From: Escherichia coli
GTDB lineage: Bacteria; Pseudomonadota; Gammaproteobacteria; Enterobacterales; Enterobacteriaceae
Length of the DNA: 64,000 bases
Direction: 5' to 3' (one strand)
Assembly (NCBI RefSeq): GCF_024223415.1
Contig: NZ_CP100500.1
Below are positions 8,434-33,454 of the stretch, piece by piece. A program made the position numbers and the translations under genes. Each line of letters starts with the position of its first letter. The first letter of the stretch is position 1. The notes below the pieces were generated by a model. The model was not told the origin of the DNA. It searched no databases and worked only from the letters and a program-made list of their open reading frames with translations.

Positions 8434-8434
8434 C

Positions 8435-10175: not shown

Positions 10176-10426
10176 AGTACCTCCTGCAACATCTCCTTAT
10201 CCAGACTCAGATCAGCCACCAGTTTCTTCAGCCGCTGATTTTCATCCTCCAGTTGCCGCAGACGCCGCAGTTCCGTCACGCCCAGACCGGCAAATTTCTT
10301 CTTCCAGTTGTAAAAGGTGGCCTCAGAAATACCCATCTTTCTGCAGACTTCCCCGACGCGGGTGCCGGTTTCGGCCTGTTTCAGCGCAAACGCAATCTGT
10401 TCTTCGGTATAACGGGTCTTTTTCAT
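10160..10426 (-). CDS. IS3-family transposase OrfA (HTH)
   Basis: 'MKKTRYTEEQIAFALKQAETGTRVGEVCRKMGISEATFYNWKKKF' followed by a leucine zipper. Confidence 0.9.
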   Translation of the reverse strand: MKKTRYTEEQIAFALKQAETGTRVGEVCRKMGISEATFYNWKKKFAGLGVTELRRLRQLEDENQRLKKLVADLSLDKEMLQEVLKQKF

Positions 10427-10554: not shown

Positions 10555-12786
10555 CTAGTTCTCTACCATCAACCGGGCAAGCTTGGCAAAAATCGAACAC
10601 TTGCTGCTTTCACCGCTCCTGAGCATATCCAGGGTAAAGCTATTGAGATAAACGCCAGTTAACGGGTGGCTAAATACATCTACGGCTTTGCCTTGGGCAT
10701 CCCATATCAGCAGATTTTCCACCAGGTTAGGCCGTGCAATAGTAGGATTTGTAGGCTGGGCATCGCTTACCAGAACAAATACACCATTCTCATGCGGTTG
10801 CAGATAAATATGGTGATGCTTCATCTTTTGCGCTTTGGTCAGCGAGTCGTATTTCGAGCGGCCAGGTGATATCAGATAGGGCAGTACGTTTTGATCCGGT
10901 TTTGCAGAGCGGGTGATGGCGTACCCGTTAAATTTATCCCCTTTACGCTCTGCCAGAGTTTTTTCTTGTTCCTGATAAGCGTATGAATCGACGATATTAA
11001 ATTGCGCCGGGCCAATCAGGCGCGGTACGCGGGAGCTGTTGTAGGTGGTAAGCAGGACATCTGCTGTGTGGTCGTAGAGATAGAAGCTTTTGTCGAATAA
11101 TTTCTTTAATCGTCCCAGAGAGGGGGGATCAACAGACAGATAGTCTAATTTACCTTCAGCGATCCCGGTATCAACCACCCTAAGTTGGCCGTGTTCTATT
11201 TTTAGTTCGACATATCCAAGCAGGGGGAGATAGCTTTTCGTTTTGCGTACTGCATAGGCGGTATAGTGCCCGTCCGCCAAATCTGGTAGTGGGATGTGAT
11301 GCTGATTGAGTAAGCTCTCTTTGAACCATAGCTCGGTTTTTGTTCGGCGAACCTTACTGTTAAGTAAGGTAACTGCTGACTTGAGACGACTGTGAGGCTT
11401 CGTAAGATCGATTTCGTATTGAGTAGGGTTGCTTGTCAATTGTTCATTAATAAAATCAATCGCATCCAACAACTTGTGATCAATATTCATACCCTGTAAG
11501 ACTACGGGCAGAGGTTGCTGATTTAGCCACCCTTGCAAACGATCTAGTTTAAGCTGGGTATAAGTATCCCAATTGAGTTCGGGTTGTTTTCGGGCGTCGG
11601 CAAAGGCCGCATAGAAATCATTGTACTCAACAGATTCATTATCTTGCTGGCGGATGCTGTTGCTCCGCTCTTCATCTACTGCATTGAGTACCAGAATAGA
11701 TGTACTGGCAGGCAGCTCAGAAAAGCCGGTTTGCTGAGAATGTTTAAGCGACGCCAGAGGCCAGAGTTGATACCCGGGGAACTGGATGGCTAATGTGTCA
11801 AAGAAATAAGCTTCTTGCGTGGCGCTAAATTCGACGCCGTTATTAACCACCAACAGCGTATTAGTCAGTTGTTGATCGAGGTCGGTAGCGAACTGATTGA
11901 CCTCGTGGGTGGCCTGAAATGCGATAGGCTGATGCGGGATCTCTAGTTCACTGAGCCGCTCGCAGGCGGCATTCATGACCACGTTATAGGTATAGGCCTG
12001 GCATTCACCATAGCCGCTGCGCTCACGAAAAAAGTCCAGTTTGCTATCCCGGGCATCGAGTTTGCGCCGGGCTTTGAGCCGACGATTATCGATGTTAAAC
12101 CACACGCAGGTATCGTCCAGAGAGAGATGCAATTCATCCTCCGGTTCGACCAGAAATTTTCGTTTGTGCAGGGTAAAGGCGAGTTCGTTATATTCTGATG
12201 CATAAATGTCGAGTTCGAATGCCTCCATCACTCCAGTGCCGCTTTTCTGCGTGACGGGCTGACTCAGGCGAGCGTTGAGATAGAACGTAGAGTTGAAGTA
12301 GGTTGGCGGTACCGAAAAGCGCTCGCTGGCTTGTTCCAGCATTACCATTTTCAAATGCAGACTGAACAATCCCTGAATCAGGCGAGATAAATCATAATTT
12401 TCAGCTGTGAGTCGCTGGCAAAGCGTTTCAATGCGTTCTGCCAAAGTCCGATGCGCTAGGCTGTTCGGTGCAGCAGCAGGCGCCAGGAAAAAAAAGACGT
12501 GATGGTAATTGGGTAAGCAATGCAGCTCATATTTTACTTCCTGTCCGGCCTCAAGCCCAAGCTTCTGCCGCACGCAAGTTTTTACCTCCTGATGAATTCG
12601 CGCATAGTAATCAGCGGATTTTTCTTTTCGCTCTTTAGTAAAGTGCTGAACCATAAAGTCTATCGTATAGATATTAGATACCGGGGCCAATAGACGCTGG
12701 ATTGTTGTCAGCTGATCTTCTTCAAGCTTGATCAAATTGGTACGGGCAATCGGAGTATCCGTCAGCTCATTCAGATTAGGGATCAT
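10555..12786 (-). CDS. 743 aa protein of unknown function; last gene of the five-gene operon (possible Argonaute/PIWI-like partner, unproven)
   Basis: Long uninterrupted ORF. ATGA start/stop overlap with the upstream helicase-nuclease gene. I recognise no motif except a C-terminal 'SSKCSIFAKLARLMVEN' tail. Confidence 0.75.
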   Translation of the reverse strand: MIPNLNELTDTPIARTNLIKLEEDQLTTIQRLLAPVSNIYTIDFMVQHFTKERKEKSADYYARIHQEVKTCVRQKLGLEAGQEVKYELHCLPNYHHVFFFLAPAAAPNSLAHRTLAERIETLCQRLTAENYDLSRLIQGLFSLHLKMVMLEQASERFSVPPTYFNSTFYLNARLSQPVTQKSGTGVMEAFELDIYASEYNELAFTLHKRKFLVEPEDELHLSLDDTCVWFNIDNRRLKARRKLDARDSKLDFFRERSGYGECQAYTYNVVMNAACERLSELEIPHQPIAFQATHEVNQFATDLDQQLTNTLLVVNNGVEFSATQEAYFFDTLAIQFPGYQLWPLASLKHSQQTGFSELPASTSILVLNAVDEERSNSIRQQDNESVEYNDFYAAFADARKQPELNWDTYTQLKLDRLQGWLNQQPLPVVLQGMNIDHKLLDAIDFINEQLTSNPTQYEIDLTKPHSRLKSAVTLLNSKVRRTKTELWFKESLLNQHHIPLPDLADGHYTAYAVRKTKSYLPLLGYVELKIEHGQLRVVDTGIAEGKLDYLSVDPPSLGRLKKLFDKSFYLYDHTADVLLTTYNSSRVPRLIGPAQFNIVDSYAYQEQEKTLAERKGDKFNGYAITRSAKPDQNVLPYLISPGRSKYDSLTKAQKMKHHHIYLQPHENGVFVLVSDAQPTNPTIARPNLVENLLIWDAQGKAVDVFSHPLTGVYLNSFTLDMLRSGESSKCSIFAKLARLMVEN

Positions 12787-15700
12787 GATACTTTTCCTTT
12801 AGTCGGCAACTTTTCTACACCCAGCAGGGTTAGTAACATTGGGTTTATATCCAATGTCATGCGCAGTTTCGAGTTTTCCTGAGCGCGTCCGCTCTCTCGA
12901 TTTTTGGGCTGATAATACTGGTAGTCAGTTTGCAACAGGTTGAGGTAGTGGATCGTGTGATCCACATTATCCTGCCACATCAGATTATTAGGGTTCTGGC
13001 TGTAGGCGACGTTCAGATAGATAAATCGAATACGTTCATAACGGCCTGCCAGCGCCGTCTGGAGCTGTTTCTGCCCCTCAGTATCCGCCTTTTGGCTGGC
13101 GATATTACGGATCTGGCGAATCTTGTTGTCGCTTTTCTCAAGCGTTTCTTCTGCCCGCGTCAAATCGTCCAACTGTGTCGCCCAGCGCTTAACGTCGATG
13201 CAGAGCAGGTCGTCGCCCACTTCAATAAAGCGGTCAAAAAACTCATAGACCAGCGGTTCAAGGCGTTCAAACACCTGCTGGTCGGAGAGTGGGGTAACAC
13301 CATAACTTTTTAGCACTTTATCGAAGAGATATTCACCGACATTGCCTTTGAGCAACGGAACTAGCCTGGGGTTGGGTACCCATTTTTTGAATGCCTTTTC
13401 CTGGATGTTGTCACATTCACGAATCAACTCGCCGACCAGGTTGCCGGGGGTAAAATCGACATCGTTTCTATACTGCGGAAAGAGGGTGAGCTCTGGCCGG
13501 TACTCTCTTGCGCCGCCAGCGAAATCCGACAGGGCGGAATAATCTCTGTGGGCAAGTCCATCCGGGCCGCGTTTGTGGCAAAGTAAAATCGTTTGATTCC
13601 CTTGCTGACGATCGATAAACAGAGCGTCGTGAACAGATTGCATTTGTCGATTGGCGGTATACAAGGGATTAGCCTGGAGTTTTGCCAGCCAGCGCTGGGG
13701 ATCGGTAAAGGAGTCAGGATCGCGGAATAAATTACATATCTCGAGATAATCGAGATTGCCAGCGCGTACCTTATTAATCCAGTCGGTTTTAAGGACACGT
13801 TTGTGAATTTCATCGATGCGGCGACCATTCGCGACGATAGCTTGCTCAAACGTCAGTCGCTGTTCCGCATTATTGAATGACTGGCCCTGACTCAGCTTTT
13901 CGCACTCCTCCATGAGTCGGTGGTTAAGCAAAGACATACTTTCTGATACCACCTCGTTACCGCTATCTTCACTAAGAGCGGCGAACTGAAATGCAACATT
14001 ACGGAACACATCGCGGGGTAAAAAGATTTCTGTTTTCAATAGAGTGTCGCGACGCTCGACTCGCCCTACGGCCTGCACGACGACTTTGAATAAGCTCATA
14101 TCATGTTCGGCCATTAACAGGCGATAGTTTTCGCCGTGGGCGAAATTAACGTTGAAATCGGCCAGCTTGTGGACGGTAATATCGTCATCGGCGTAGTGTT
14201 TAAGCACGGTAACGTAGTTAGGTAATGTATTGAGGTTGCCGCTGTTGTCCTTTACTTCGCTGTAAAACGAGGAGTTGATGAGCACTAAGCGCTCAAAATC
14301 GACATCCAGACGTGGTGCATTGATATCATTAATATCGCCGTCATGGTATTTAACAAAGTAGTTGAGGCCGGTACCCGCACTTTTATAACTGCTCATAAAT
14401 ACCAGTACGGTATTGCTGTTCTGGAGATAGGTTTCTTGCCTGATATCTTCGACATTAGCCAGTGGTGAATCGAAAAAGACCAAATGGACGGTGTGACGCC
14501 CTTTGAATGGGGTAAAGGTCAGGATCTGGTCATGTTTCTTACCGTTATCCGTTTTTTCATCGCACCGGGAGTGCATACCGTACTGCTGACGCCAGGTTGT
14601 CTGGTGCGTGCGCCAGGCGCTGATAAAGGCCCGCTTAAACGTCCCTGAAAGTGACAGAATCAGGCTGTTTTTACCCTCCCAGGCGGCAAGCAGTAACGCT
14701 TCCAGTTCCCGCTGGCACTGACGCCGTTTATAGGTATTTTTCAGGTCGTATTCCAGCGGTTTCTTCAGCGCGTCGAAAAAGTTGTCATACGTCCTGCGAT
14801 AGATTTCACAATTTTGGTAGATATCGGTCAATTTTAACTGCTTATCATCGAACACCCTGAAGTCTACGTTGCGGATACTGGCCCTCAACCCGCGTAATGC
14901 CTTAAGCGTATCGATATCTGCCTTTTCGCGTTCAACGACCCGGTAGCCAAGGTCGCGGCTATAGTGCGCCAGGAAGTGACGATTGAAGTTACCGTTTTTG
15001 GTGTGGCTAAAACCGCTGGTGGCGCTAAGCCCAATTACTTTATTGTGCGTGCCGGTTAATAAACGCAGCAGCATGGCTTCAGGCAACTCTTGTACCAGAT
15101 CCATCTCGAACGCCAGAATAATTGTGCGCTCGGCTCCCCTGTTCACGTAATTGAGTTCAGCTATCGGCGTCATCGTGAATACGGTTTTGGGTTGCAGGTA
15201 AGTGTAGAAATGATCAATCAACAAGTTTTTATCGGTGGTGCGATCGAAGATATGTCGCACCACGCCGGCTACGTTATTGGCTGCGTCAACAAACTGGCCC
15301 AAAGGCGTATTCTGGCTGCTGGAGTTGTCCTGGCCACCATTCTTTACCCAGCGCTTAAAGTGCCGGTTGGTGATTTCAGAACAGGCGGCGAGGATGACGG
15401 AGACCAACTGGAACAGATCGTGCAGAGTGGGGTTGGTGTCATTGGCATCATTTTCGACTTCGTAATACAGTTCGGTGCGCGTTATGTCGCCTTCGCTGTT
15501 GCGCATGCGAATGCGTTTCAGCCCTTCTTCATTGACGTACATTTTGGGGTTAAAGCTGAATACGTTGCGGGTGATTGAGATGATGCGTTCGGCGGCGTCG
15601 CCGTTGACTTCAAATGCCCCTAACTGGTCACGAAACATCTCCAGGATCGATCCCAGCCTTGTACCGGGGGATAGTTCGCACTTTTCCGCCAGTAAATTGC

Positions 15701-17498
15701 GCAGAGTAGTGATGAATTTGACCATCTCTTGCTCAAAGGTCGTTTGCGCTTCTTTGGGCTTGTTTCGGCGTTCTAAGCTGAGTACCGCGTTGTGAATACG
15801 TCCTGCGACGGAAATAACGTGCGCCAGGTTATTTTCCTGTGTGATTAGCTTTACATGGCATGTTTCTTCAAGGCGAGTGTAGGCTTCATGTAGTTCATCA
15901 ATGATCACCGTAAAACGAATATTTTTCTGGCGAAAAGGACAATCTGGATTGCGTCTGAAGTGTTCGTCGCGAAGATAGGTAACCTGCCCGGTATGACCGG
16001 CTGCCGCAACGGTGCTAATCTGTGGATCTTTGGGAGTCAGCTTACCGCCAATCAGCAAGTCGAAACCTACGGACTCAAAACGCACACCTTCGCCTCGCTG
16101 ACGAGGCGCCAGTCGGTAAGTTGATGTGTCGAACTTATTCGTGGTCATTAATAGCACTGACGGGCGGTACTGGCAAACTTCGAAAGGCAATACCTGTTTG
16201 ATAAGCTCGAAATAGACTTCGTGTACGCTTATCTTAGGTTCAAGCTTTCCTGGTTTTCGTGCTGTCTCCGCGTTTTGCATTCGCTCTTGCCGCGCCTGGA
16301 GCCCGCGACGAATGTACTCTTTAATGGAAGCTTTTTCACTATCTGGTCCAAATAGTAATTTACAGGCTGACTCAATCGTATTGCGGATACTGTGACGGCA
16401 GTTTTTTAGCTGTTCTTCGAGAATTTCTCTTTCGTAGTTGGTATCCTGAGAACCGTATGTTGTCAGCTTTTTTAACTGCTCTTCACAGCGATCAATTTGT
16501 AAGACATGATAATTGAGCGAACGAATAGCGCCGCCGATATATTTGCTGCCTTTCGCCCCTTCGTACCACTGAATATAGCTGTCGCGGTTTTTCAGACCAG
16601 AGGCCCAGTCCATAAAGTCGAGGTCGGCAACATCCTTACGGGAGAGAACGCAAATGAACTCGCCGCTAGCGGCCAGAATTTTCTCTTTCTGACTGCTGTC
16701 CAGGTCGATTTGTGATTTTTGCGGTGACATGAATAGCAGGTTGGTAAAGCCACCTTCAGGAAACAGATCGTCTGACTTTTGGGTTTTGGCGAAGCGCTCC
16801 AGATATTCGACATACCCTTGGATCACGCCATAGCTTTTGCCGAACCCCGTGCCGTCGGAACTGAAGATGACCTCAGCGCCATCACGTTCATGCACGTGGT
16901 AAAGTTGAGAGACTTGGGCGCGACAGGCGTTAATCTCTTTAATCAGCGTTATGTCAGGAATTTGCCTAGAGATGAGATCTTGCAGATTATTATTGATATT
17001 TTTCTCTCCAACACGCTCACACTTGCGGTAACTATTGATGGTTATTTGGCCGCTGTCGATCAGAATCTTTTCCACCTGTATGGGGGCAAGATGCAAGGCT
17101 GTCGCGATTTCATTGATAGTATTGGACAGTGGTTCGTGTGGATTGCTAATCGTGAAGTGGTTTAGTGCTGCCGCAACGGTATCTGGATGCAATGCTTTTC
17201 TGAGGGTGGGAAAGGTGAGGCTGTAATCGTATAGCGCCAAATCATTGCTTATCAGGCAGCGAAACAGTTGTTTAGTGGGATCGCCACCAGGACGGCTGGC
17301 AAATCCCAAGATTTTTGCCTGTTCGAGGCGATAAAGCAATGCTGCGGCATCGCGGTCAGGTGAGTCAAATGCATCGTGGAGCTGCTGGCTAAATGGCATT
17401 GTGGCATTCAGCCGGTTATGGCTGACCAGCGCGGAAAAGAGCTGACGCACCAAGGTTAGCAGCTTACAATCTTCCTCTATAGTCCAGCTTTTTCTCAT
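12783..17498 (-). CDS. ~1571 aa SF2 DExH helicase fused to a C-terminal PD-(D/E)xK-like nuclease; family unassigned
   Basis: Motif I 'GTGFGKS' (nt 16833-16853). Motif II 'IIDELHE' (15888-15899). Motif III 'LSATSG' (15018-15026). Motif VI 'QAVGRVERR' (14049-14075). Nuclease-like 'GEYLFD...FFDRF...GDDLLCIDVKRW' (13188-13334). The ATG at 17498 is preceded by GGGGAAG, 11 nt after the sngC stop; the track start at 17534 is the alternative. Confidence 0.8.
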   Translation of the reverse strand: MRKSWTIEEDCKLLTLVRQLFSALVSHNRLNATMPFSQQLHDAFDSPDRDAAALLYRLEQAKILGFASRPGGDPTKQLFRCLISNDLALYDYSLTFPTLRKALHPDTVAAALNHFTISNPHEPLSNTINEIATALHLAPIQVEKILIDSGQITINSYRKCERVGEKNINNNLQDLISRQIPDITLIKEINACRAQVSQLYHVHERDGAEVIFSSDGTGFGKSYGVIQGYVEYLERFAKTQKSDDLFPEGGFTNLLFMSPQKSQIDLDSSQKEKILAASGEFICVLSRKDVADLDFMDWASGLKNRDSYIQWYEGAKGSKYIGGAIRSLNYHVLQIDRCEEQLKKLTTYGSQDTNYEREILEEQLKNCRHSIRNTIESACKLLFGPDSEKASIKEYIRRGLQARQERMQNAETARKPGKLEPKISVHEVYFELIKQVLPFEVCQYRPSVLLMTTNKFDTSTYRLAPRQRGEGVRFESVGFDLLIGGKLTPKDPQISTVAAAGHTGQVTYLRDEHFRRNPDCPFRQKNIRFTVIIDELHEAYTRLEETCHVKLITQENNLAHVISVAGRIHNAVLSLERRNKPKEAQTTFEQEMVKFITTLRNLLAEKCELSPGTRLGSILEMFRDQLGAFEVNGDAAERIISITRNVFSFNPKMYVNEEGLKRIRMRNSEGDITRTELYYEVENDANDTNPTLHDLFQLVSVILAACSEITNRHFKRWVKNGGQDNSSSQNTPLGQFVDAANNVAGVVRHIFDRTTDKNLLIDHFYTYLQPKTVFTMTPIAELNYVNRGAERTIILAFEMDLVQELPEAMLLRLLTGTHNKVIGLSATSGFSHTKNGNFNRHFLAHYSRDLGYRVVEREKADIDTLKALRGLRASIRNVDFRVFDDKQLKLTDIYQNCEIYRRTYDNFFDALKKPLEYDLKNTYKRRQCQRELEALLLAAWEGKNSLILSLSGTFKRAFISAWRTHQTTWRQQYGMHSRCDEKTDNGKKHDQILTFTPFKGRHTVHLVFFDSPLANVEDIRQETYLQNSNTVLVFMSSYKSAGTGLNYFVKYHDGDINDINAPRLDVDFERLVLINSSFYSEVKDNSGNLNTLPNYVTVLKHYADDDITVHKLADFNVNFAHGENYRLLMAEHDMSLFKVVVQAVGRVERRDTLLKTEIFLPRDVFRNVAFQFAALSEDSGNEVVSESMSLLNHRLMEECEKLSQGQSFNNAEQRLTFEQAIVANGRRIDEIHKRVLKTDWINKVRAGNLDYLEICNLFRDPDSFTDPQRWLAKLQANPLYTANRQMQSVHDALFIDRQQGNQTILLCHKRGPDGLAHRDYSALSDFAGGAREYRPELTLFPQYRNDVDFTPGNLVGELIRECDNIQEKAFKKWVPNPRLVPLLKGNVGEYLFDKVLKSYGVTPLSDQQVFERLEPLVYEFFDRFIEVGDDLLCIDVKRWATQLDDLTRAEETLEKSDNKIRQIRNIASQKADTEGQKQLQTALAGRYERIRFIYLNVAYSQNPNNLMWQDNVDHTIHYLNLLQTDYQYYQPKNRESGRAQENSKLRMTLDINPMLLTLLGVEKLPTKGKVS

Positions 17499-17509
17499 TC
17501 TTCTTCCCC

Positions 17510-19708
17510 TTAATATAAATGCCCCTGCAACCACTCCGTCACGCGTTCAATATTAAAAGCACGTAATCCATATTCCTGCGTCAGCAACGTCTCGGGTAAA
17601 TACTCATCATATTTTTCGAGGCACTTTTCAACGATGCTTTCGGCAAGACGGGATTCGTAAGGTAGCCCTTCCTGAAGTGCGCTGAATAACGCTTGTTTAA
17701 CCTCCGAGACCGTAGTTTTTTCTACTTCAACCACACCAGCAAATGAGCCCGCCTTGAAACCGCGTTGGATAAGTAATGCCGACAACGTGTTTACGGTTTG
17801 ATCGCCTAGCCAGGGAAGAATGTAGACATGCTGTCTCTGCTGAATAAAACATTCCGAAGCCAGATTATTGTTGCGAAAACAGTGCAGCCCTTCATCAAAC
17901 AGGTTTTTGGCCGTGGTATCGGCAAAATCGGCCTTGCGATTGCCAACGGTGATGCGGTAGTCGCCTTCCCGATAAATAGTGAGCATTTCTTGGCGGACGA
18001 CATCATGAATGGACATCCCTTGTCCGCCAAATAACGGCGGCTGCCCACCCTTTGTCGCCTCGACATAAATAACTTTTTTATCACTATCGATATCGGTTAC
18101 CTTCCAGCGTCGACCGCCGAAAATAATGTGTTGATCAGGCATCAGTGGGGAATCAACGGGAATGGAGCCCAGTGTTTTGCTCCCCGCCACAATGCGAAAC
18201 TCTTCCGGCGTGCTGAACACGGCGTAGAAGGTGTATTGATTTACCTGACGTTCGCCCTCGACGCCCAGAACCAGTTCGCCGCTTGAGAGCTGGGTCAGAA
18301 ACTGGTGCTCCCCCATATGTTTCAATAACGTTTTGAAGTCATAGATCCGGACTTTCTGAAATGGCCCTTGCAGGCATAGCTGTGACCAGATCTGATCCGC
18401 ACGCACGCCTCCCCACTGCGCCACGATCGCCAGGATCTGATGGAACAGGGTGGAATAGTGCATCTGCCGGGTATCAGCTGGCTCAAACCATTTGTTGCCG
18501 ATAAGTAAGCGGATCATGGCCAGCGACTGAACAAGCTGAAGCCTGAGCTGGTCGACAATGCCTGATGTTGGCGTCAGTTCATGTTCGGCAATCAGCATTC
18601 TCAATACGGCAGGCGAGTCGCGCCGACCGGAGCGTCCCATTCGCTGACGCAGGCTGGCTACGGAATGGGGGGCGGTAACTTGCACAACGGAGCTGACTTT
18701 ACCGATGTCGATGCCAAGCTCTAACGTCATCGTACAGATGGCGGTGGTGGGTAAGTTGCCTTGTTGAAGCCTCTGTTCCAGCGTTTCACGCAGATCTCTG
18801 GACAGAGATCCGTGATGGGGAAAGAACTCATTGGGAACGATGCTCGCTTCACTGAGATCGCTAAGCGTGGCGGCAATGCTTTCGGTCCGTTTGCGACTAT
18901 TAGCGAACACCAGATGGGAATCACCACGACAGAGGCGAAAGATATCATGGCAGATTTGCGTCTCTGCCGACGGTGGAGATTGCTGGCCCGAGGTGGTCAG
19001 CGGTTCCAGATAACCTTTCACCTGTACTTTTAGCGTGGCGTGAGTCTGACTGTCGGTAATAATGTCACAGGGCAGACGTTGATTTGGCCGCAGAGATAAC
19101 GGCACCTGTTCCAGTTCCCCCAGCGTTGCGCTGAGTGCGACTCGGGGGACTGGATTGTTGATTCTTCCCAGCAGGTGATCGACTCGATTTAACAGAGAGA
19201 GAAGCTGCATACCCCGCTCAGAACCGATGAAAGCATGGAATTCATCAATGGCGATATATGCCAGTGGCGCGAAAGCCTGCTTTAACCATCCCGCATTGCG
19301 GATCAGCATCGCTTCCAGCGATTCCGGGGTGATAAGCAAAATACCGGCAGGATTCTTCTTTGCTTTCAGCTTTTTGCTCTGCGCAACATCACCATGCCAG
19401 GGCGTGACCGGCATCTCCAACGCATCACCGAGGTTTTCCAGCCTTCGATACTGATCGTTAATCAGGGCCTTAAGCGGGCTGATGTATAAAATGCCAAAGC
19501 CGCCCTGAATATCCGCAATGGCAGAACAGGCGGGCAGGAAAAACGCTTCTGTTTTACCTGCGGCAGTCGCGGCGCTGATCAGAACATCCCGATCGCCCGC
19601 TAATATCGGTGAAACGGATTTTTTTTGCAGTTCCCTGAGATCGGCCCATCCCTGCCGGTATATCCACTTCTGTATCCGTGGATCCAGCCGCTGGTATTCG
19701 TTCATCAT
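17510..19708 (-). CDS. sngC: Lhr-like DEAD/DEAH helicase, Shango SngC-type
   Basis: Motif I 'TAAGKTEAF', motif II 'IDEFHAF', motif III 'LSATLG', motif VI 'QRMGRSGRR'. ATGA overlap with the upstream ATPase gene. Confidence 0.75.
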   Translation of the reverse strand: MMNEYQRLDPRIQKWIYRQGWADLRELQKKSVSPILAGDRDVLISAATAAGKTEAFFLPACSAIADIQGGFGILYISPLKALINDQYRRLENLGDALEMPVTPWHGDVAQSKKLKAKKNPAGILLITPESLEAMLIRNAGWLKQAFAPLAYIAIDEFHAFIGSERGMQLLSLLNRVDHLLGRINNPVPRVALSATLGELEQVPLSLRPNQRLPCDIITDSQTHATLKVQVKGYLEPLTTSGQQSPPSAETQICHDIFRLCRGDSHLVFANSRKRTESIAATLSDLSEASIVPNEFFPHHGSLSRDLRETLEQRLQQGNLPTTAICTMTLELGIDIGKVSSVVQVTAPHSVASLRQRMGRSGRRDSPAVLRMLIAEHELTPTSGIVDQLRLQLVQSLAMIRLLIGNKWFEPADTRQMHYSTLFHQILAIVAQWGGVRADQIWSQLCLQGPFQKVRIYDFKTLLKHMGEHQFLTQLSSGELVLGVEGERQVNQYTFYAVFSTPEEFRIVAGSKTLGSIPVDSPLMPDQHIIFGGRRWKVTDIDSDKKVIYVEATKGGQPPLFGGQGMSIHDVVRQEMLTIYREGDYRITVGNRKADFADTTAKNLFDEGLHCFRNNNLASECFIQQRQHVYILPWLGDQTVNTLSALLIQRGFKAGSFAGVVEVEKTTVSEVKQALFSALQEGLPYESRLAESIVEKCLEKYDEYLPETLLTQEYGLRAFNIERVTEWLQGHLY

Positions 19709-21021
19709 AATCTGAAGTCGGCCAGACCGTCCTCATCGGCATCTTCTGCCGATGTTATTTCATCCATATCACTGGGTTTTTCTTCCGCGATCGCGACACC
19801 GGCGATTAACTGTGACCACTGAATGGATGGGTTTTGTTCCAGCACGGCCAGCATATCCAGGAAGGCTTTAATCGTGTTTCGTGGCGTACGGAAATAGGCA
19901 TCGCCAATAGTGTTGCTACAGTGGCGTAAAAATGCCGTCAGAGCATCATCAGGAACCAGATACTTATCCGCATCGCCGCCGGAATAAACGTGACGAAGGT
20001 TTTTCAACAGAATATAGAGTTCTTCCGGCGTCAGGCTGGCTAAGTGCAGGGAAGGGGACGAATAATCAATGACACCAGCCCGCTGAGCGAAGCTATTTTC
20101 CGCCAGTCGGGACTGGAGCGCTTCGTAGCTGTACAACCCCTTGCGCGGATCGAACAGGAATTCTGGCGTACCGCCAAGTAAAAAACCGATATATTCAGCC
20201 GTCCCTTGCAGGCAGTCATTCAGAATACGCAGTATCTGTTCATAGTTGGCAACGCGGGCCTGAGTGTTACTGAGCTTATACAGATTGACCATCTCATCCA
20301 GATTCACCAGCAGACCCGCGTATCCGGCCTGACGGACAAACAGGCTCATCAGCTTTAGCGAATCGTAGAAAGAGGCATCAGAAATAATGGTGCGCACACC
20401 CAGATCGTTACGGGCGTCGGTTTTCGTGGTGTATTCACCTCTTAGCCAGCGGATGGCATTTGATTTCAATGTCTCATTATCCTGCTCGTGGCCCTGCCAG
20501 TAACATTCAATGACTTTGGCGAAATCGTAACCGCCAACCATATCAGACAGGGCGGCGAGCTTTTGGTGAATAATCGTCGGAACTGACACATTTGTACTTT
20601 CTGCTTCTTTTCTGGCTTCCGTGATAAAGCGCTCAACCACGCTTAATAATGCGTTTCCATCCGGCTTATTTCGGGTGGATAGATTTTTCATTAGCTCGGA
20701 GTAGAGGTTACGCGCCTGCCCACCCGTCGCGTGGATGCGCCTGTCCGGGGATAAATCGGCGCTGATTGTCACCAGCTTTTTTTCTAGCGCAATTGAGCGC
20801 ACAACGCTTAAAAAGAATGTCTTACCTGAGCCATATTCCCCAATAATCAGCCGGAGTCCTGCGCCGCCATCAGCGATACGCTCAATATCCTGATACAGCG
20901 CTTTTATTTCGTTGACCCGGCCAACCTGAATGTGCTGAATACCAATTTTAGGCGTAACACCTGACTTCAGTGACTGAATAATAGCGTCTCTTTCTTTGAG
21001 ACGAATACGAATGCCAGACAT
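19705..21021 (-). CDS. sngB: DUF2791-type ATPase, Shango SngB-type
   Basis: Walker A 'GEYGSGKTF', Walker B 'LLVNLDEM'. Sits between the TerB protein and the helicase. Confidence 0.75.
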   Translation of the reverse strand: MSGIRIRLKERDAIIQSLKSGVTPKIGIQHIQVGRVNEIKALYQDIERIADGGAGLRLIIGEYGSGKTFFLSVVRSIALEKKLVTISADLSPDRRIHATGGQARNLYSELMKNLSTRNKPDGNALLSVVERFITEARKEAESTNVSVPTIIHQKLAALSDMVGGYDFAKVIECYWQGHEQDNETLKSNAIRWLRGEYTTKTDARNDLGVRTIISDASFYDSLKLMSLFVRQAGYAGLLVNLDEMVNLYKLSNTQARVANYEQILRILNDCLQGTAEYIGFLLGGTPEFLFDPRKGLYSYEALQSRLAENSFAQRAGVIDYSSPSLHLASLTPEELYILLKNLRHVYSGGDADKYLVPDDALTAFLRHCSNTIGDAYFRTPRNTIKAFLDMLAVLEQNPSIQWSQLIAGVAIAEEKPSDMDEITSAEDADEDGLADFRL

Positions 21022-21024
21022 AAA

Positions 21025-23352
21025 TTATCCTTTGAGTTCTTGTGCAATTTCCAGGTCAACGTAAATATCATCGTCATCATCAAGCACCGGGGCGTCAACC
21101 TGTTCGAAAGACCAGTCATTAATTGCTTCAATCGCGCCGCTTAGCATCAAATTAAACTGCTGGCATAGCTCAGCGACTTCGTTTCGCGCCCAGCGTTCTT
21201 TTTCCTGCAAACGTTGGTAAAGTTGATGATGTGCTTCATCAAGACCTGCGCCAGCGTGTGGCGGGATCTCCGCTGGGGATTCGTCTGCGGGTTCATCTTC
21301 GGTGAAGATGGTGTTCAGTAACTGGCGTACGTCCGTTGTGTCGGATTCATGACGGGCAAGGATCCGTTCATCAAGAGAAAACGCGCCGCTCGTCGCTGAT
21401 GGGGTTTGTAACGTAGCTGTCGGAGTTGTTTCTGCGGTTGACAGTCGGTGGATATCGCTGGTAACGGCACTGCTGTCCAGACCGAGGCTGGCGTAGATTT
21501 TTTCCAGTTGTTTGATTTCAGCCGGATCGATTTTTCCATCTGCGCAGGCGACGCTGATAATCACGTTGCCAATAGTGGATTTATCTTTATCGCTGAGTTG
21601 CTCAATTTTACCTTTCAGACCAGCCTGATTTGCAGGCGTATTGAGCCGCCAGGTGAGGTAGGCGTGCAGCGAACGTTTTTCTGTTGGCGACAGCGCATCG
21701 TTATGATTAATCGTTTTCTCCAGCGCGGCCTGTTCAGCAACATCCACGCGCTTGTCCATTTGTGCAATCATGGCACCCAACCGAAGCGCCACAGAGACTG
21801 ACGTAAATTCCGCCGACGGTACGTAGAATTCCGCATGCCCTTCAGGAAATAAAACAAGATGACCTTCTGGATCCGGTCTGACAAGGTGATAGCGCATATC
21901 CGGCGCAATGCCGTAGCCTGCTCGCCGGGCGAAATTTTGCATCAGCTCGGCTTCTTTCTTATTAATCTTATCCGGTACAGGCATACCCAGTCTGGCCCAG
22001 AAATCAGCCACTGTCGCCAGTCCTGAATGTTCACGGATTTTCTCATCTGCCCAGTGTTTAAATTCAGCAAATAGACGTTCTGCATCTTCGGTCAGTATTT
22101 CATCGGGAAGCAGCATGATGGCGGCGACATCACTTGGTGAGGCATCTTTTTTACCGAGATAGCGACTGTAGGCATCCAGCGCGTTGATACAGGATTCTGC
22201 AACAGAAATTAATTTCTGAACTGGGGCTTTTAAAACGCTGGGATCGGGAAGATCCATCTGTTTTTTTACCTGAAGTTCCCGAAGCGTACCACTGGCGGGG
22301 GTATAGCTTAAATACAACCGTGTTTTATTGGGTTTGACGACAATACCGTCACCGTATTTTTGAGTATAACGCTGTTTGAATAATGCGGAAAATTCAGCAT
22401 GACATCGACGGGCAGGCGTGCGCAGGGTGTAATCAGGAAAATAGTATATCCATGCCAGTGCCAGAGCGGCACAAATAGGTTGTCCTTTATCGACCACAGT
22501 CGCTAGATTTAATCTGAACAGTAATGAACTCCTCGATGAGAAATATTCGTTTTCGGTATATATAGAAAGCAACTTCGGTCGGAGAACGATCATCATTTCC
22601 AGCAACTGCGTTGCATAATGCCGGAAGGAACCGCTTGCCTGAAATACGGTTCTCAGGCGCGATATCTCTTCGAATAATGCTTTGAATTCATCGTCAGAAA
22701 TGGCTTCTTGTGTGCCATCGGCCAGTACGCGGCGTTCTAGACCGTAAAAATAGATAAAAACATAGCCAACGGGGCAGCTCGCATCGCTGCGATCGCTTGC
22801 CAGCCAGTCAAGATAGGCGCCACGGCAGCGAGGGGAGAGTGTGGCAAAGCTGGGCCAGTATCCCAGTGACTCATCATAATAATGCCGTGAACCAGGCTCG
22901 ATGGGAAAAGCGTCATTAACCAGCGAAGCGTCGGAGTCATCGTTATAAAGATATCCATATTCTCCTGATGAATGTGTTTTTAACCGCCCGCCGAAATAAA
23001 AATAACCGTGATTAATGACGACATTTTGAATGGTGATGCTTTCTCCCGGTTTGACCCATCGCGCTGGAGTGGTATTGCTACGGGCGGCGTTTTCTCGTGA
23101 CGGCTGGCGGCTGGTGCTGTATTCAACCGTCTGCCCGTTCACAAAAGTAAAGGTTGCCAGTTCGTCATCATCGGAGGCCTGAGAATGCATATTTGTCATG
23201 CTGTTATCTGGCTTATTGAGAGATTTCTGTCGAGATGAATGATTTATTTTGGTGATGATTTTGTTGTTTACTCTGGGGGGCGGCGATTTTTTCTTTTTGG
23301 AAAACAGAAGCCAGATAACCGCCAGCATAATAACAAATATCCAGAAGCCCAT
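21025..23352 (-). CDS. sngA: TerB-N / TerB / TerB-C domain membrane protein, Shango SngA-type
   Basis: N-terminal TM 'FWIFVIMLAVIWLLF'. TerB-like '...VACADGKIDPAEIKQLEKIYASLGLD'. TerB-C-like 'FSLDERILARHESDTTDVRQLLNTIF'. Confidence 0.75.
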   Translation of the reverse strand: MGFWIFVIMLAVIWLLFSKKKKSPPPRVNNKIITKINHSSRQKSLNKPDNSMTNMHSQASDDDELATFTFVNGQTVEYSTSRQPSRENAARSNTTPARWVKPGESITIQNVVINHGYFYFGGRLKTHSSGEYGYLYNDDSDASLVNDAFPIEPGSRHYYDESLGYWPSFATLSPRCRGAYLDWLASDRSDASCPVGYVFIYFYGLERRVLADGTQEAISDDEFKALFEEISRLRTVFQASGSFRHYATQLLEMMIVLRPKLLSIYTENEYFSSRSSLLFRLNLATVVDKGQPICAALALAWIYYFPDYTLRTPARRCHAEFSALFKQRYTQKYGDGIVVKPNKTRLYLSYTPASGTLRELQVKKQMDLPDPSVLKAPVQKLISVAESCINALDAYSRYLGKKDASPSDVAAIMLLPDEILTEDAERLFAEFKHWADEKIREHSGLATVADFWARLGMPVPDKINKKEAELMQNFARRAGYGIAPDMRYHLVRPDPEGHLVLFPEGHAEFYVPSAEFTSVSVALRLGAMIAQMDKRVDVAEQAALEKTINHNDALSPTEKRSLHAYLTWRLNTPANQAGLKGKIEQLSDKDKSTIGNVIISVACADGKIDPAEIKQLEKIYASLGLDSSAVTSDIHRLSTAETTPTATLQTPSATSGAFSLDERILARHESDTTDVRQLLNTIFTEDEPADESPAEIPPHAGAGLDEAHHQLYQRLQEKERWARNEVAELCQQFNLMLSGAIEAINDWSFEQVDAPVLDDDDDIYVDLEIAQELKG

Positions 23353-23535
23353 TCCTTGCCCTTAATCGCTGATAACGCTTCCCGGCATTGTTCTACGATA
23401 GGCAAAGGCGGTAAGCATAAAACTGGAAGAGAGATCGTAAAATGATACCGCGAATGGGCTAGAGTACAAGCATAAAAACCCTATTATTCAAAAGGATTAT
23501 GTCATATGGCTGGGGGAGCAATTGGCAGGACCAGG

Positions 23536-24603
23536 TTATACCTCTGAATCACGCATAAAACGATTGATTTCATCTTGCGCATGACGAAGACGATCGGCAA
23601 TGTCAGCAAATCTGTCAGGCTGATGAAAGAACATTCCCCCTTCCACCGCCGTTTGATGATCCCCGGCGATCGCTGCGAACCGTTCAGCATCGTCAGGCAA
23701 CAGTTGCAGGTTTCCGACAATCACCTGAGTAAAATCCACACCCGGCACAGACCAGCGACGTTGCTTCATCTCGACCACATTGCGCATGGCTTCCAGCGTT
23801 TCATAGGGGCTGGCAAAATGATTACTCAGCAGACAATCCACATCATACCAATGGCGTGCCAGTCGGGCCGGATTTGGCGCTTTGGTTTGCGTGCAGAACT
23901 GGTGCAGCGCCGTCAGCTTTTCCCAAAGAATATAACCGGTGTCATAAGCGTTTACGGTCGCGGTGGGTAACTGGAGTGTATCCATGCCTGCGATCCCGGA
24001 CAGATAGCTTACAACAGGCATCAGATCGGTTGGCTTGCCACGATTTCGTCCGCCAAATTCCAGCAGAATATGATCGCGCTGATAGGCCATACTGTCTTCT
24101 TTCACCCGTGGGAAATAGATATCGACTTTTTCGCCACCACTGTCGGGTTCCATTTTTGCTTCAAGGCCCGGAATTTCATAAGTCTGAAAGCGTTGGTTTA
24201 ACCGTTCTGCCAGCGCGTTTGTCCATTCTGTTAAGCGCTCTTGCTGCTGCTCTCTGAACCGGCGATTCTGGCTGTTATTTAGCGTGCTTTGCTCCCATGC
24301 CTGCTGTTCTTCCTCTTCTGAGTGGCCTGCCAGATCGGCCCAGTGAACAGAAAGATCGATATCTTCAGAAAAACGCTCAATCACGTTCCAGCATTTGCTT
24401 AACGCCGTTCCACCTTTAAACGCGACAGATAAACCTCCCAGCAGCTCCTCATTAAAAAGTAACCGAAGGATCTCCGTTACCCAGAGATCCTTTTCCAGAA
24501 AGCTGGCTCCCAGCCCGGAGGGATGCTGCTGCGCCGCGTAAGAGAGGATTTCCTGAAGCTCGCGACGTTGTGATGCGCTCCGGTAGTAATCAAAAATGTC
24601 CAT
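23536..24603 (-). CDS. abiEii: AbiEii/AbiGii-family nucleotidyltransferase toxin
   Basis: NTase signature 'FKGGTALSKC...ERFSEDIDLS'. The start 'MDIFDYY' overlaps the AbiEi stop (TGATG). Confidence 0.85.
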   Translation of the reverse strand: MDIFDYYRSASQRRELQEILSYAAQQHPSGLGASFLEKDLWVTEILRLLFNEELLGGLSVAFKGGTALSKCWNVIERFSEDIDLSVHWADLAGHSEEEEQQAWEQSTLNNSQNRRFREQQQERLTEWTNALAERLNQRFQTYEIPGLEAKMEPDSGGEKVDIYFPRVKEDSMAYQRDHILLEFGGRNRGKPTDLMPVVSYLSGIAGMDTLQLPTATVNAYDTGYILWEKLTALHQFCTQTKAPNPARLARHWYDVDCLLSNHFASPYETLEAMRNVVEMKQRRWSVPGVDFTQVIVGNLQLLPDDAERFAAIAGDHQTAVEGGMFFHQPDRFADIADRLRHAQDEINRFMRDSEV

Positions 24604-25220
24604 CAGAGCGCCTTTTGCAACGTTATCAGCTGCGAGCGCCACGCGTGAAGCGCAGGCTCATTCATCAACTTTCCGGCAATCTGCCGTGCTTTAGCGGACG
24701 GGATGCTCAGCCGATGAAAAGCATTCTTCAGCGTTTCCAATGGGGTATGTTGCTGATCCAGACTCAGCAAACCGCGCATCAGCTCTCCTTCAGGCCGGTT
24801 CAGCCAACGTAACCGACTTGCTGATTTATGCTGGATCCGTACCCGCTCATTGCCGACGCGGAATTCTCGCGTAGGGCCGTTTGACCAGTAGATGCGTTTA
24901 ACTGGCGCCTGCGTTTGCAGCCCCAGCCGGTAAGCGGCTTCCAGCCCCTGAAGGGTGATTTTGTAACCACGCTCTTTTGCCCATGCGGCGGCAACGGCAT
25001 TGGCGCTGGCAACAACGTTAACAGAGGGGATGTTTTTCAACGGCTTTGGCCGGGAGTAGAAACCGCGTTCAACCCGGACCAGCAGGCCTTCTTTGACCAG
25101 ACGGCTCATTGCCTGTTGTACCGACGCACGGCTTCCCAGCGAGTAAAACCCGCTGATGGAAAAGGGGATGCCACGCTTCATGCGGTGAACCCGCTGGCGG
25201 GCCAGAGCGGCAACAGACAT
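24603..25220 (-). CDS. abiEi: AbiEi-family antitoxin/transcriptional regulator
   Basis: 'MSVAALARQRVHRMKRGIPFSISGFYSLGSRASVQQAMSRLVKEGLLVRVERGFY' (wHTH). AGGAG lies 6 nt upstream of the ATG at 25220. Confidence 0.8.
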   Translation of the reverse strand: MSVAALARQRVHRMKRGIPFSISGFYSLGSRASVQQAMSRLVKEGLLVRVERGFYSRPKPLKNIPSVNVVASANAVAAAWAKERGYKITLQGLEAAYRLGLQTQAPVKRIYWSNGPTREFRVGNERVRIQHKSASRLRWLNRPEGELMRGLLSLDQQHTPLETLKNAFHRLSIPSAKARQIAGKLMNEPALHAWRSQLITLQKAL

Positions 25221-25418
25221 TGATTCTCCTGTACTGACGTTTTCATTGATATGTATTTTCATTATATCCCTTGTGTAGCAAGGAGTCTAACCTAAAAAAT
25301 GTCAGTAATATTCATTCTATGACAATGTTTAAAATGGCAGATATCAGTGAGGTAGCTTGCTGTAGGAAATTCCGACGATAAAATACCCACATACAGCAGG
25401 CGGTGATAAGGATATAGC

Positions 25419-27614
25419 ATGAGCATTCTCTCCATCCACGGCGTTCGCAGTTATCAGGGCGAAAGGCCAGTGGAGTTCGACTTGAGTAAGTATGTCACTC
25501 TTATCTATGGACAAAACGGCTCAGGAAAATCAACCGTTTCTGGTTACTTTTATAAGCATGGTCGTCCAGATTACAGCCAGTGCAGCCTGCGACCTCCACT
25601 GGATATGAACTACCTGGTGTTTAATCAGGAGTATGTAGACGATATTTTCAGCCAACCTTCTCAGCCGGGCATTTTCACTTTAAATAGTGAAAATGCAGAA
25701 ATTAAAACTGAAATAGATGCTCTGGAAGCGGAGAGTAAAGTTTTGTTTGCCCGGCGTGATGCTTTGGACGTGCAAAAACGCGACGTTGAGGGCATGGAAG
25801 AAAGTATTAAAAATGGCTCCGCAAAACAGATTTATAGTTCTACCGCAGAAATCAGAAAAACAGATTTATGGGATTTGATGTCTGGAACTAAACAGACCGA
25901 CAAACTTTTTCAGACCATCCTTGAACACACTGAAGTCGAAGATACTTCGACGCAGGAATTAACCGAAGAACTACACCGACTTGAAGCCAGTAAAGGCAAC
26001 CCTTACGCTTTGCTCGAAGCATTGCCAGCATCCCCTTTGAATGACAATGATATTGCGCTATTGATGCAACCTCTTATTCCAGCAGGTGATAGCCGTCTTG
26101 CTGCCGCAATTAACCAATTGGGCAACATTGACTGGGTGAGGAATGGACAGCAGTGGCTGAGTGATGACATTTGCCCATTTTGTCAAACGCCGATAGATGC
26201 CCGGCAACTTCAACAGGAAATCACTGCCCTTTTTGATACCTCATGGGAAGCTGCGATGGACCAGTTGCGGGAACTTCAGGCGCGATATCAATTCTGGCAC
26301 GATAAACCCGAACATATGCGGCAGTTAATAAAAACGTGTCCGTTAGTTGATCAGGAACATCCTGTTTATCTCTATCTACTTGAACTGGAGCAGGCGTATC
26401 AAAGAAATAAATTGCATATCGATGAGAAATTGACATCACCCTCTGCGTCGATTGCTGTTGAGGATCTTTCTGCTCTGGCTGGCAATGTCTCTGTGCAGAT
26501 AGCCAGTATTAATACAATAATAAGCGAACATAACCGAAAGGCTGAAAATTATCAGACTGAACGGGTTAGACTGAAACAGAGACTACTCAGTCATATCCGA
26601 AAACTGGCTACCGATACGATAATTAACCATGATGAACAACTAGCAGAACTTGCTGAAAAATTGGCAAAATTAACGGTGTCTCGGGATGAAATTACGGCCC
26701 AGCTTGATACGCTGAACGCAATTATTCGCGGTAAATCCAGCCTGATCGTCAATACGCAGGAAACGATTGAACGTATTAATCACAGCTTGGATAGCCTTGG
26801 AATCACTGGATTCCGCATTGCTCCCTATGACGATCGGGATGATTATCGTCTGGTGAGGGAAGGTGAGAACAGCGATACGCCTGTTTTTAGTAGTCTGAGT
26901 GAAGGGGAAAAGACGCTGATTGCTTTTCTCTATTTTCTGGAGACTTGCACAGGGAGAAAAAGTCGTGATGACAATGACCAACGAAAACGTTTAATTGTCA
27001 TTGATGATCCTATATCCAGCCTGTCGCAAAACTATGTTTTTGAAATAGCATCGTTGATCCAGCATCAGGTTATACGTGCCAGAATTGGTGAGAAAGTGAT
27101 TATTCTGACGCACAGCCTGTTTTTCTTTCAGGAGTTACTGCTTTCTGCGGAACGGAAGAAAAGGGCAGCGGGTTCTTGCCCACCAGAATGGACGCTTTAT
27201 CGGGTATCCAAATCCTTACATAGTTCTGCTTCCCTTGTTTCCGAAAAAGAATTACTGAACGACTATCAGGCACTCTGGTATGTCTTACGCCACGCCCAAA
27301 AAGATGACATTGCCAGTGTGGTGATCCCAAATACGATGCGGCAAATCCTTGAATACTATTTTGGTTTTTCGGGGAAAAGTGAGACGCTTCACCGGGCGCT
27401 TGAAACACTGGCGAGCGGGCCTGAAGGTGAACCTGGTTTCCGTATATTTGCTCGTTATCTAAATCGACATTCTCACCAGGATGCCCGCAATATCTCTCTT
27501 CATGAGGGGGCTTCGGTTGAACGCTATCTTACCTGGTTTAAGAAAGTATTCGAGGCGGCAAAGGATGAAGAGCATTACACATCAATGATGGAAAAGACGA
27601 CACAAACGACCTGA
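25419..27614 (+). CDS. rloC: RloC-like ATPase / putative anticodon nuclease (AAA_13 type with zinc hook)
   Basis: Walker A 'GQNGSGKST'. Coiled-coil insert with 'CPFC' (nt 26172-26183). Walker B 'LIVIDDPISSL'. C-terminal 'FARYLNRHSHQDARN'. Confidence 0.7.
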   Translation: MSILSIHGVRSYQGERPVEFDLSKYVTLIYGQNGSGKSTVSGYFYKHGRPDYSQCSLRPPLDMNYLVFNQEYVDDIFSQPSQPGIFTLNSENAEIKTEIDALEAESKVLFARRDALDVQKRDVEGMEESIKNGSAKQIYSSTAEIRKTDLWDLMSGTKQTDKLFQTILEHTEVEDTSTQELTEELHRLEASKGNPYALLEALPASPLNDNDIALLMQPLIPAGDSRLAAAINQLGNIDWVRNGQQWLSDDICPFCQTPIDARQLQQEITALFDTSWEAAMDQLRELQARYQFWHDKPEHMRQLIKTCPLVDQEHPVYLYLLELEQAYQRNKLHIDEKLTSPSASIAVEDLSALAGNVSVQIASINTIISEHNRKAENYQTERVRLKQRLLSHIRKLATDTIINHDEQLAELAEKLAKLTVSRDEITAQLDTLNAIIRGKSSLIVNTQETIERINHSLDSLGITGFRIAPYDDRDDYRLVREGENSDTPVFSSLSEGEKTLIAFLYFLETCTGRKSRDDNDQRKRLIVIDDPISSLSQNYVFEIASLIQHQVIRARIGEKVIILTHSLFFFQELLLSAERKKRAAGSCPPEWTLYRVSKSLHSSASLVSEKELLNDYQALWYVLRHAQKDDIASVVIPNTMRQILEYYFGFSGKSETLHRALETLASGPEGEPGFRIFARYLNRHSHQDARNISLHEGASVERYLTWFKKVFEAAKDEEHYTSMMEKTTQTT

Positions 27615-28743
27615 TTAACAACAGAAGAGGACCATCACCCCGGGATTAACCGTTAGCAGTTCGGCAAAGAGCGCATGTGCTGGCACACGTGCTCCCAGCG
27701 ACCAAAACGGAAACGCAGATACTGGTGAACCAGCACAGTTTTCTGTTTCATACCGGGCTCCTTTCTTTCGACGCCGACAAGCTGTCGGCGAGCCCCGTAC
27801 ACCTCGTACGAGCGTGACTATCGTGTAGAGGCTAAGGATCCCGGGGGATGGCTTCCGCTATCGTAGGCGATTTCATTTGATGATTCAATCTTTGCTTTGG
27901 ATAACAATTAATTGAGATGGTCGTATTTTAGTATTAGCACTGTATGTCTTAGCTATAGTGCTGCTGAAATGACCAATTCGGGAACCGTGATGGTTTCCTG
28001 GAAACTCTCTTGCTTATTTTACGATGCTGGCCGATTATCACAAAACGTTGCTTAAACGCTGATTGGATATGGTGCTTTGTGGCAGTCATTCGCTTGTCTG
28101 ACGTTGCCATGGCTTACATTTGATGTAGCCAATGTAGAAGCCGCTTGGTGAATTGTTCTATGACATGGTCTACTACTTCGTTGTGGAAAATGAAGATGCG
28201 GTACCGGGTATGTACCATTGATGGTGAGAGGCTTATCGACGAATGGACCGTACGATATTGCTTGGCTGGAAAGGTGTGTGAAGCATTGTAGATTTACATT
28301 CACAAAATCGCGAGAAAATCTACAAACAACTCTATTTCCAGAAAAATGAGTTTCCCCTTTCTGCGCCAGAAATAAAGGCGTAATCTCCCTCCTGCACTAT
28401 GTTGTCGTGGACAACTCCCTTGCTTCATGGTCTGCAAGAAGCCCCTGATTTATCAGGATGACCAGCCCTTTCTACCGGTACGACCTCCGCAATACCGGAA
28501 CGCGAAAGCGTTTGAGGCTAAGAGTACATACACATGAACGGCTCCATCGTCATCGCTTAACGGCAACAGCCTTCACCGGCTGAACGGCCTCTCTTTGCCG
28601 GAATTTTCCTGGCCCACTTATACCCTGCTGATAACCAGCGCCTTTTTACATGACGGGCTGCGGCCTGCATTGCCGAAGGCTTTGCTGCCGCGTGACCGTC
28701 ATCCTGCACCAGAGTGTTAATTTTCAGACCCTGCGCCAGACCA

Positions 28744-33409: not shown

Positions 33410-33454
33410 TTTAAGTTCTCAGTAATGGGGGAGATAAAGGTGAGATATTCGGGA

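Follow-up and report, generated by a model that had tools for sequence, protein, structure and literature searches.

ApsAB is an antiplasmid system described from Escherichia coli sequence type 38 (ST38; Nat Commun 2024;15:4093, PMC11096173), in which ApsA combines a superfamily 2 (SF2) helicase with a PD-(D/E)xK nuclease and ApsB is a "novel Argonaute-like protein" bearing the MID-type residues Y409, K413, Q431, K489 and N743. It destabilises IncL pOXA-48 and p15A, ColE1 and pMB1 plasmids, and not pSC101 or IncF; the substitutions K221A and E533A in ApsA and K413A in ApsB abolish this effect and K1435A reduces it, and the activity extends to variants with 92/92% and 28/25% identity (PMC11096173). 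In that work both genes were required, the ATPase/helicase and MID-pocket residues were essential, and plasmids were actively eliminated, by proteins about 92-94% identical to those discussed here. The present analysis concerns a 64,000-nucleotide stretch of E. coli DNA (the window; contig NZ_CP100500.1, assembly GCF_024223415.1), and within it the segment 10555-27614, where the initial annotation had placed a gene pair of unassigned function among defence genes. Judged by its motifs and its identity to known copies, that pair is ApsAB, published in 2024, and we hold with high confidence that the locus as a whole is best explained as a genomic island at the tRNA-Phe gene pheV carrying four defence modules, the ApsAB antiplasmid system among them.

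The pair lies on the minus strand, apsA (12783-17498; 1571 aa from the RefSeq start) preceding apsB (10555-12786; 743 aa) with a 4-bp overlap, and the two genes are adjacent in every homologous locus for which downstream sequence is available. As an SF2 helicase fused to a PD-(D/E)xK nuclease, ApsA shows the helicase motifs GFGKS (218-222), DELH (534-537), SAT (825-827) and QAVGRVER (1142-1149), all invariant across 28 homologues; residue by residue, the alignment leaves invariant the Walker A segment D215-K221, D534-E535-x-H537, S825-A-T827, Q1142-x-x-G-R-x-E-R1149 and, in the C-terminal nuclease part, E1389...D1422...D1435-x-K1437, where the window protein reads D1435-V-K1437. The published counterparts are 218-GFGKS-222, 532-DELH-535, 823-SAT-825, 1140-QAVGRVER-1147 and D1420/D1433-V-K1435 (PMC11096173). 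In ApsB the MID-type 5'-end-binding motif is found as Y409, K413, Q431-G432, K489 and the C-terminal N743, invariant in 25 homologues, and between them the window proteins hold every ApsAB motif residue listed in PMC11096173. A cluster representative of 1569 aa (P0004, standing for 1171 member sequences) carries its motifs at exactly the coordinates given in the paper and shares 94.3% identity with the window ApsA, and the pair from the leuX island is about 94% (ApsA) and about 91% (ApsB) identical to that of the window. The suspicion in the initial annotation that the pair is itself an immunity system is thus borne out, since plasmid elimination by ApsAB has been shown experimentally (PMC11096173).

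That the pair had appeared unassigned is explained by ApsAB being newer than the 2023 PADLOC release, Pfam and NCBIfam, or missing from them. Neither protein has a Pfam match even at E-values up to 10, nor any match in PADLOC or NCBIfam; phmmer and profile hmmsearch comparisons with PDB chains returned only coiled-coil noise to apolipophorin, and a literature search by accession returned nothing. Helicase systems of the Druantia, Hachiman, DISARM and Mokosh types were considered for the pair and set aside, as no PADLOC model matched. Homologues of both proteins come from Gammaproteobacteria only, lack Pfam domains and are all named "hypothetical", and the pairing is kept in about 40 loci, down to 23% identity. 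An interrupted apsB occurs in natural isolates: in E. coli SK0189 (locus L003, 14000-18366), and also in ZH063, apsB is broken by an IS21 element, which echoes the inactivation of apsAB by insertion sequences (IS) in published evolution experiments.

Mechanistically, ApsB presumably holds a 5'-phosphorylated guide in its MID-type pocket and so would mark invading plasmid DNA, onto which ApsA may then be loaded, translocating with ATP and degrading the DNA. The handover from ApsB to ApsA in this scheme is modelled on the structurally related DdmDE of Vibrio cholerae, for which such a mechanism has been solved, and no later mechanistic paper on ApsAB was found in the literature. The analogy has some structural backing in that, among predicted models, the best structural matches of ApsA and ApsB are the solved DdmD and DdmE structures, the ApsA model spanning residues 372-1571, downstream of the first ~200 residues and of the half of RecA1 that holds Walker A. 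The pair is thus predicted to combine a helicase-nuclease fold with a partner resembling prokaryotic Argonautes (pAgo), as DdmDE does, while at the sequence or profile level neither protein matches DdmD or DdmE in PADLOC, Pfam, NCBIfam or the PDB chains. In the last ~120 residues of the ApsB model, confidence (pLDDT) falls below 50 at 623-706 and 711-730. The segment 623-730 is rich in invariant residues (R626, N633, P636, Y637, G642, R643, D647, K651, H658, Q677 and N715-D720), and it could be the seat of a missing PIWI-like or ApsA-binding part.

The remainder of the segment is occupied by three further modules. Upstream of apsAB, and likewise on the minus strand, lie the three genes by which Shango is defined: sngC, a DEAD/DEAH helicase (17510-19708; PADLOC SngC 1.2e-273; Pfam DEAD and Helicase_C), sngB, a BrxD-like ATPase (19705-21021; PADLOC SngB 4e-187; Pfam BrxC_BrxD 4e-151), and sngA, a TerB-domain protein (21025-23352; PADLOC SngA 5e-97; Pfam TerB_N, TerB and TerB_C), separated by gaps of -4 bp (sngC to sngB) and 3 bp (sngB to sngA). 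Shango would contribute an anti-phage module of undefined mechanism. Beyond it stand abiEii, the nucleotidyltransferase toxin of a type IV toxin-antitoxin (TA)/abortive-infection pair (23536-24603, minus strand; PADLOC AbiEii 3e-193; Pfam AbiEii 7e-38), and abiEi, its DUF6088/AbiEi_4 antitoxin or regulator (24603-25220, minus strand; PADLOC AbiEi 7e-46; Pfam DUF6088 3e-18), in the order abiEi then abiEii with a 1-bp overlap; a 10/12 match to a sigma-70 site lies upstream of abiEi at 25289-25261, which is weak evidence for a promoter. AbiE would contribute a toxin-antitoxin pair acting by abortive infection. The last gene, on the plus strand at 25419-27614, encodes an AAA_13 ATPase (8e-104 over its full length) that falls in the PADLOC candidate class PDC-S06 (3e-242). 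Its residues 493-728 match the PrrC model at 4e-16, and reading by eye finds CPFC at 252-255, resembling a zinc hook in a predicted coiled coil, together with a C-terminal RQILE...NRHSH. On these features the protein is probably a PrrC-type anticodon nuclease, as a candidate, and "RloC-like" is a reasonable tentative label.

Taken together, 10555-27614 holds eight intact open reading frames (ORFs), seven on the minus strand and one on the plus strand, six of them identified without ambiguity by Pfam, PADLOC and NCBIfam, and the gaps between successive genes are -4, 11, -4, 3, 183, -1 and 198 bp. The dense stack of at least four immunity modules with short gaps that the initial annotation perceived (the pair, Shango sngABC, AbiEi/AbiEii and the PDC-S06/RloC-like ATPase) is therefore upheld, ORFs and family matches agreeing on it. 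The same is true of its remark that housekeeping genes are missing from the cargo: none occurs among the eight genes, and in NZ_CP084096, which is 99.9% identical to the window over 1-31757 and divergent beyond, the RefSeq annotation lists, from yghD to the integrase genes, nothing besides the same eight genes and an IS3 transposase. In the window that IS3-family transposase, read through a programmed frameshift (HTH_Tnp_1 and rve by Pfam, with the RefSeq annotation of the 99.9% identical genome), lies at 9327-10426 on the minus strand. At the other end, 27615-29132 is a decayed region of ~1.5 kb with no convincing gene (no ORF above 83 aa, no Pfam match); it shares only short patches with the sister island of E. 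coli 2022H048 (L060), which has two small genes there.

These genes lie in a discrete genomic island of ~22.5 kb, 9120-31647, at the 3' end of the tRNA-Phe gene pheV. Its distal border is a copy of the tRNA-Phe (pheV) 3' end adjoining yghD, the attachment (att) repeat TGGTGCCCGGACTCGGAATCATA of 23 nt at 9120-9142 on the minus strand, found in a pattern search as one match with two mismatches where none was expected by chance; the same repeat adjoins yghD in L060. To its left the window holds the type II secretion operon gspD-yghD (1-8971), and GC content drops at ~9 kb from about 0.55 to about 0.48. The proximal copy, at 31626-31647 on the minus strand, carries a 1-nt deletion; it was missed by the mismatch-only search and found by reading the sequence, and it marks the junction with the next island. 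Directly inside it sits a P4-type tyrosine integrase that is a frameshifted pseudogene (30196-31502, minus strand; RefSeq label "frameshifted"), split into ORFs at 31044-31502 and 30196-31047, one with Arm-DNA-bind_3 and Phage_int_M and the other with Phage_int_M and Phage_integrase by Pfam, and beside it lies an intact gene of the Integrase_1/Phage_int_SAM_2 family (29133-30014, plus strand; Pfam 3e-58 and 2e-34). ARAGORN finds no intact tRNA within the window, so the pheV assignment draws on sister genomes: in two sister E. coli genomes the position of the inner border is taken by an intact tRNA-Phe (pheV) followed by yqgA and speC. With tRNA 3'-end repeats on both sides, the split P4-type integrase and tRNA-Phe/yqgA at the junction, the reading of the island as pheV-targeting holds. 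Since a further island begins after 31647, the island is the distal unit of a tandem array in the window strain.

How far does this organisation recur? In a set of 5426 complete E. coli genomes, 160 have at least part of the 17-kb block, mostly apsAB alone (about 130 genomes, corresponding to the tRNA-Leu island type described in PMC11096173), and 21 have the whole stack, 20 of them at 99% identity or more. Several genomes have Shango, AbiE and PDC-S06 without apsAB, the homology ending exactly at the sngC stop, and one has apsAB, Shango and AbiE without PDC-S06; the modules are thus separable, occurring as they do in differing combinations. It was already reported that E. coli apsAB is spread over three or more families of islands, and that SngABC and AbiEi/AbiEii are encoded in some of these as well (PMC11096173, Fig. 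8b legend).

When the equivalent slot of pheV islands is compared, as the initial annotation had suggested, defence genes are again found. In E. coli 2022H048 (L060, 549-6949) the space between yghD/att and sngC holds, instead of IS3 and apsAB, a Wadjet-like cluster of five genes: an SMC-type DUF3584 ATPase of 1221 aa (Pfam 1.5e-219), a DUF4194 fragment, two unknowns and a DUF7281/JetD_C gene. Its PADLOC matches are weak, and it may be a divergent Wadjet/Mks variant. Homologous pairs elsewhere, too, stand mostly among defence genes: beside BrxR in Vibrio; a type I restriction-modification (R-M) system with AAA_15/21 and HNH genes in Ferrimonas; DISARM-like genes at the ST38-type locus, for a SNF2-family helicase and an Eco57I-like methylase, whose homologues in L018 gave PADLOC DrmD matches; two Gabija-like pairs and SIR2 in Pseudomonas; a MerR-ihfA-pheT flank in Pseudomonas sp. 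No.117; and TA and contact-dependent inhibition (CDI) genes in Photorhabdus. When 141 dereplicated neighbour proteins were scanned with PADLOC, many defence families came up, among them PtuA, NsnB, DrmA/D, BrxH, HmaA, DpdE, AriA, WYL and others, as family counts that are qualitative only. The expectation that the pair belongs in defence contexts is therefore sustained, and Oceanisphaera is the sole context that looked otherwise. In Oceanisphaera avium (L007, 6526-17404) the pair lies by itself, flanked by a TonB-dependent receptor gene and a TonB-receptor fragment of 116 aa; neither mobility nor defence genes occur in the vicinity, and the pair looks like a bare 7-kb insertion.

Could the pair serve mainly against phages, possibly through abortive infection, and not against plasmids? 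Its neighbours here and elsewhere are anti-phage systems, and many pAgo and helicase-nuclease systems target phages. Against this, chromosomal ApsAB was inactive towards eight E. coli phages (lambda, T4, P1, 186, CLB_P2, LF82_P8, T5 and T7) with no evidence of cell killing reported, and Wadjet, to which the occupant of the equivalent slot in the sister island is similar, is itself listed as an antiplasmid system (PMC11096173); we consider a mainly anti-phage role very unlikely. One might also take the island for an inert relic with a decaying cargo that has ceased to function, pointing to the frameshifted integrase, the IS3 element at one end and a gene-free stretch of about 1.5 kb. All eight cargo ORFs are nevertheless full length and keep every family-invariant residue, and the 17-kb block recurs at 99% identity or more in 20 complete genomes of human, poultry, mink and wastewater origin and at 95% in Pectobacterium, which makes a relic extremely improbable.

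A closer question is posed by Shango, because apsA starts 11 bp after the sngC stop, its ribosome-binding site overlapping that stop, and this spacing suggests that apsAB is probably co-transcribed with sngABC. The sngC-apsA junction is kept in Xenorhabdus, Brenneria, Budvicia, Enterobacter nematophilus and Pectobacterium. In each of eleven Shango-less Enterobacterales apsAB loci examined, including those encoding P0004 and one (L016) that ends at a contig end, two remnants lie upstream of apsA about 250 bp apart, namely the 3'-terminal 158-304 bp of sngC and a stretch of about 140 bp from just upstream of sngA (L002, 20944-21487; L017, L018 and L028, 9313-10000; L061, 9313-10000; equivalent to window positions 17499-17801 and 23362-23502). 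These loci, the type with ST38 motif numbering among them, accordingly look as if sngABC had been deleted from a five-gene block while the upstream region stayed in place, and "stand-alone" apsAB may use the former Shango promoter region. Further afield, two Pseudomonas loci (L040, 3405-9542; L043, 3724-9648) have a divergent Shango ~450 bp upstream of an ApsAB-like pair of 31% identity. "A large multi-domain helicase" is reported to adjoin Shango in the core defence hotspot cDHS1 of PA14 (Johnson et al.). Junction, scars and Pseudomonas adjacency suggest a recurrent Shango-apsAB linkage. It is from these same observations that one could argue for an extended Shango variant, sngABC-apsAB, in which the pair is the effector half of interdependent parts and not an autonomous module. 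Yet apsAB alone eliminates plasmids in MG1655 (PMC11096173), and Shango alone protects against phages (bioRxiv 10.1101/2022.11.11.516204); since each is active by itself, functional dependence is unlikely. In addition, apsAB occurs without Shango in Vibrio, Ferrimonas, Oceanisphaera, Photorhabdus and most Pseudomonas loci, and E. coli pheV islands with Shango and no apsAB have their boundary exactly at the sngC stop, so that an interdependent five-gene system appears quite unlikely. That Shango and ApsAB began as one co-transcribed unit and still cooperate is also unlikely as a whole, its evolutionary part being well supported and the functional coupling speculative. If it were true, the Shango helicase or ATPase might sense or expose invading DNA for ApsAB, widening protection from plasmids to phages, and the ST38 "stand-alone" ApsAB would be a deletion derivative minus its Shango half.

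The reading preferred here, a pheV island of four separable modules including an antiplasmid ApsAB, has points of its own that weigh against it. Equating P0004 with the ST38 protein draws on motif numbering and cluster size and not on an accession, and the plasmid-loss experiments were performed with the ST38 system and its variants. ApsB enters the scheme with a presumed guide and with low-confidence stretches in its model. The PDC-S06 ATPase is a candidate defence gene only, its anticodon-nuclease triad having been read by eye. Finally, a scan for sigma-70 promoters and terminators performed at chance (18 found against 20.2 expected) and is uninformative on operon structure, which leaves the 11-bp spacing as the whole case for sngABC-apsAB co-transcription.

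Some observations concern the wider setting. A second island follows in tandem at 31648-42000, with DUF4942, CbtA/CbeA, antirestriction, DUF932 and GTPase genes by homology to CP084096, to which it is just 85-94% identical. Deeper in the array lie stretches of low GC content (0.34-0.39 at 38001-41000, and 0.39-0.49 with strong positive GC skew at 46001-54000), and the full array of the window strain has no full-length match among the 5426 genomes. In EcPNK004 (L015, 1653-19698) a 92% identical copy of the Integrase_1 gene and its upstream region stands beside AbiE, DptFGH, a DGQHR protein and DndBCDE; this integrase gene (29133-30014 in the window) may mark a family of defence islands. In L063 (10001-16077) a Pseudomonas ApsAB-like pair adjoins MerR-ihfA-pheT-pheS; a MerR-ihfA-pheT flank has been reported for the P. 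aeruginosa hotspot cDHS1 (Johnson et al.). The cDHS1 hotspot might account for the Shango adjacency in Pseudomonas; MerR-ihfA-pheT occurs within 10 kb only in L063.

We can thus confirm that the observation is real, that the pair has already been published and that the island organisation has already been described; E. coli islands that combine apsAB with Shango and AbiE are in print (PMC11096173). The value as discovery is small, all four modules having been described before. There is value for annotation: Pfam, NCBIfam and PADLOC 2.0.0 all miss ApsAB, RefSeq calls it "hypothetical protein", and the system bears on the persistence or integration of resistance plasmids such as pOXA-48. A minor new point is that scars of a deleted Shango operon persist at stand-alone apsAB operons. 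A further small addition is that the predicted models of ApsA and ApsB find their best structural matches in the solved structures of DdmD and DdmE, which ties ApsAB more closely to DdmDE.

Set against the systems that it most resembles, each module shows both likeness and departure. The PDC-S06 protein shares with RloC and PrrC an AAA_13 ATPase, a CxxC motif and a PrrC-like C-terminus, but its PADLOC class is a candidate one and it is not linked to type I R-M as PrrC is. The AbiE pair has the expected AbiEii nucleotidyltransferase and AbiEi-type antitoxin in overlapping genes, whereas the antitoxin fits DUF6088 better than the classical AbiEi_4. Shango is present as three genes in canonical order with full-length PADLOC matches, and departs from the published three-gene definition in having apsAB follow 11 bp behind it in the same orientation. 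With V. cholerae DdmDE (PDB 9ezy, 8u0w, 9ix4 and 9ixm), ApsAB has in common its architecture, gene order and plasmid elimination; unlike DdmDE, it has an ApsA about 400 aa longer than DdmD, and its ApsB keeps the long-pAgo-type MID motif that DdmE lacks (PMC11096173). The remaining comparison is with ST38 ApsAB itself. Its characterised copy sits in a tRNA-Leu island with nothing left of sngABC but scars, while the window operon lies in a pheV island directly behind an intact sngABC, and the two ApsA proteins differ by two residues in length (1571 against 1569 aa); in having a two-gene operon with overlapping genes, an ApsB of 743 aa and the same motif residues, they are alike.

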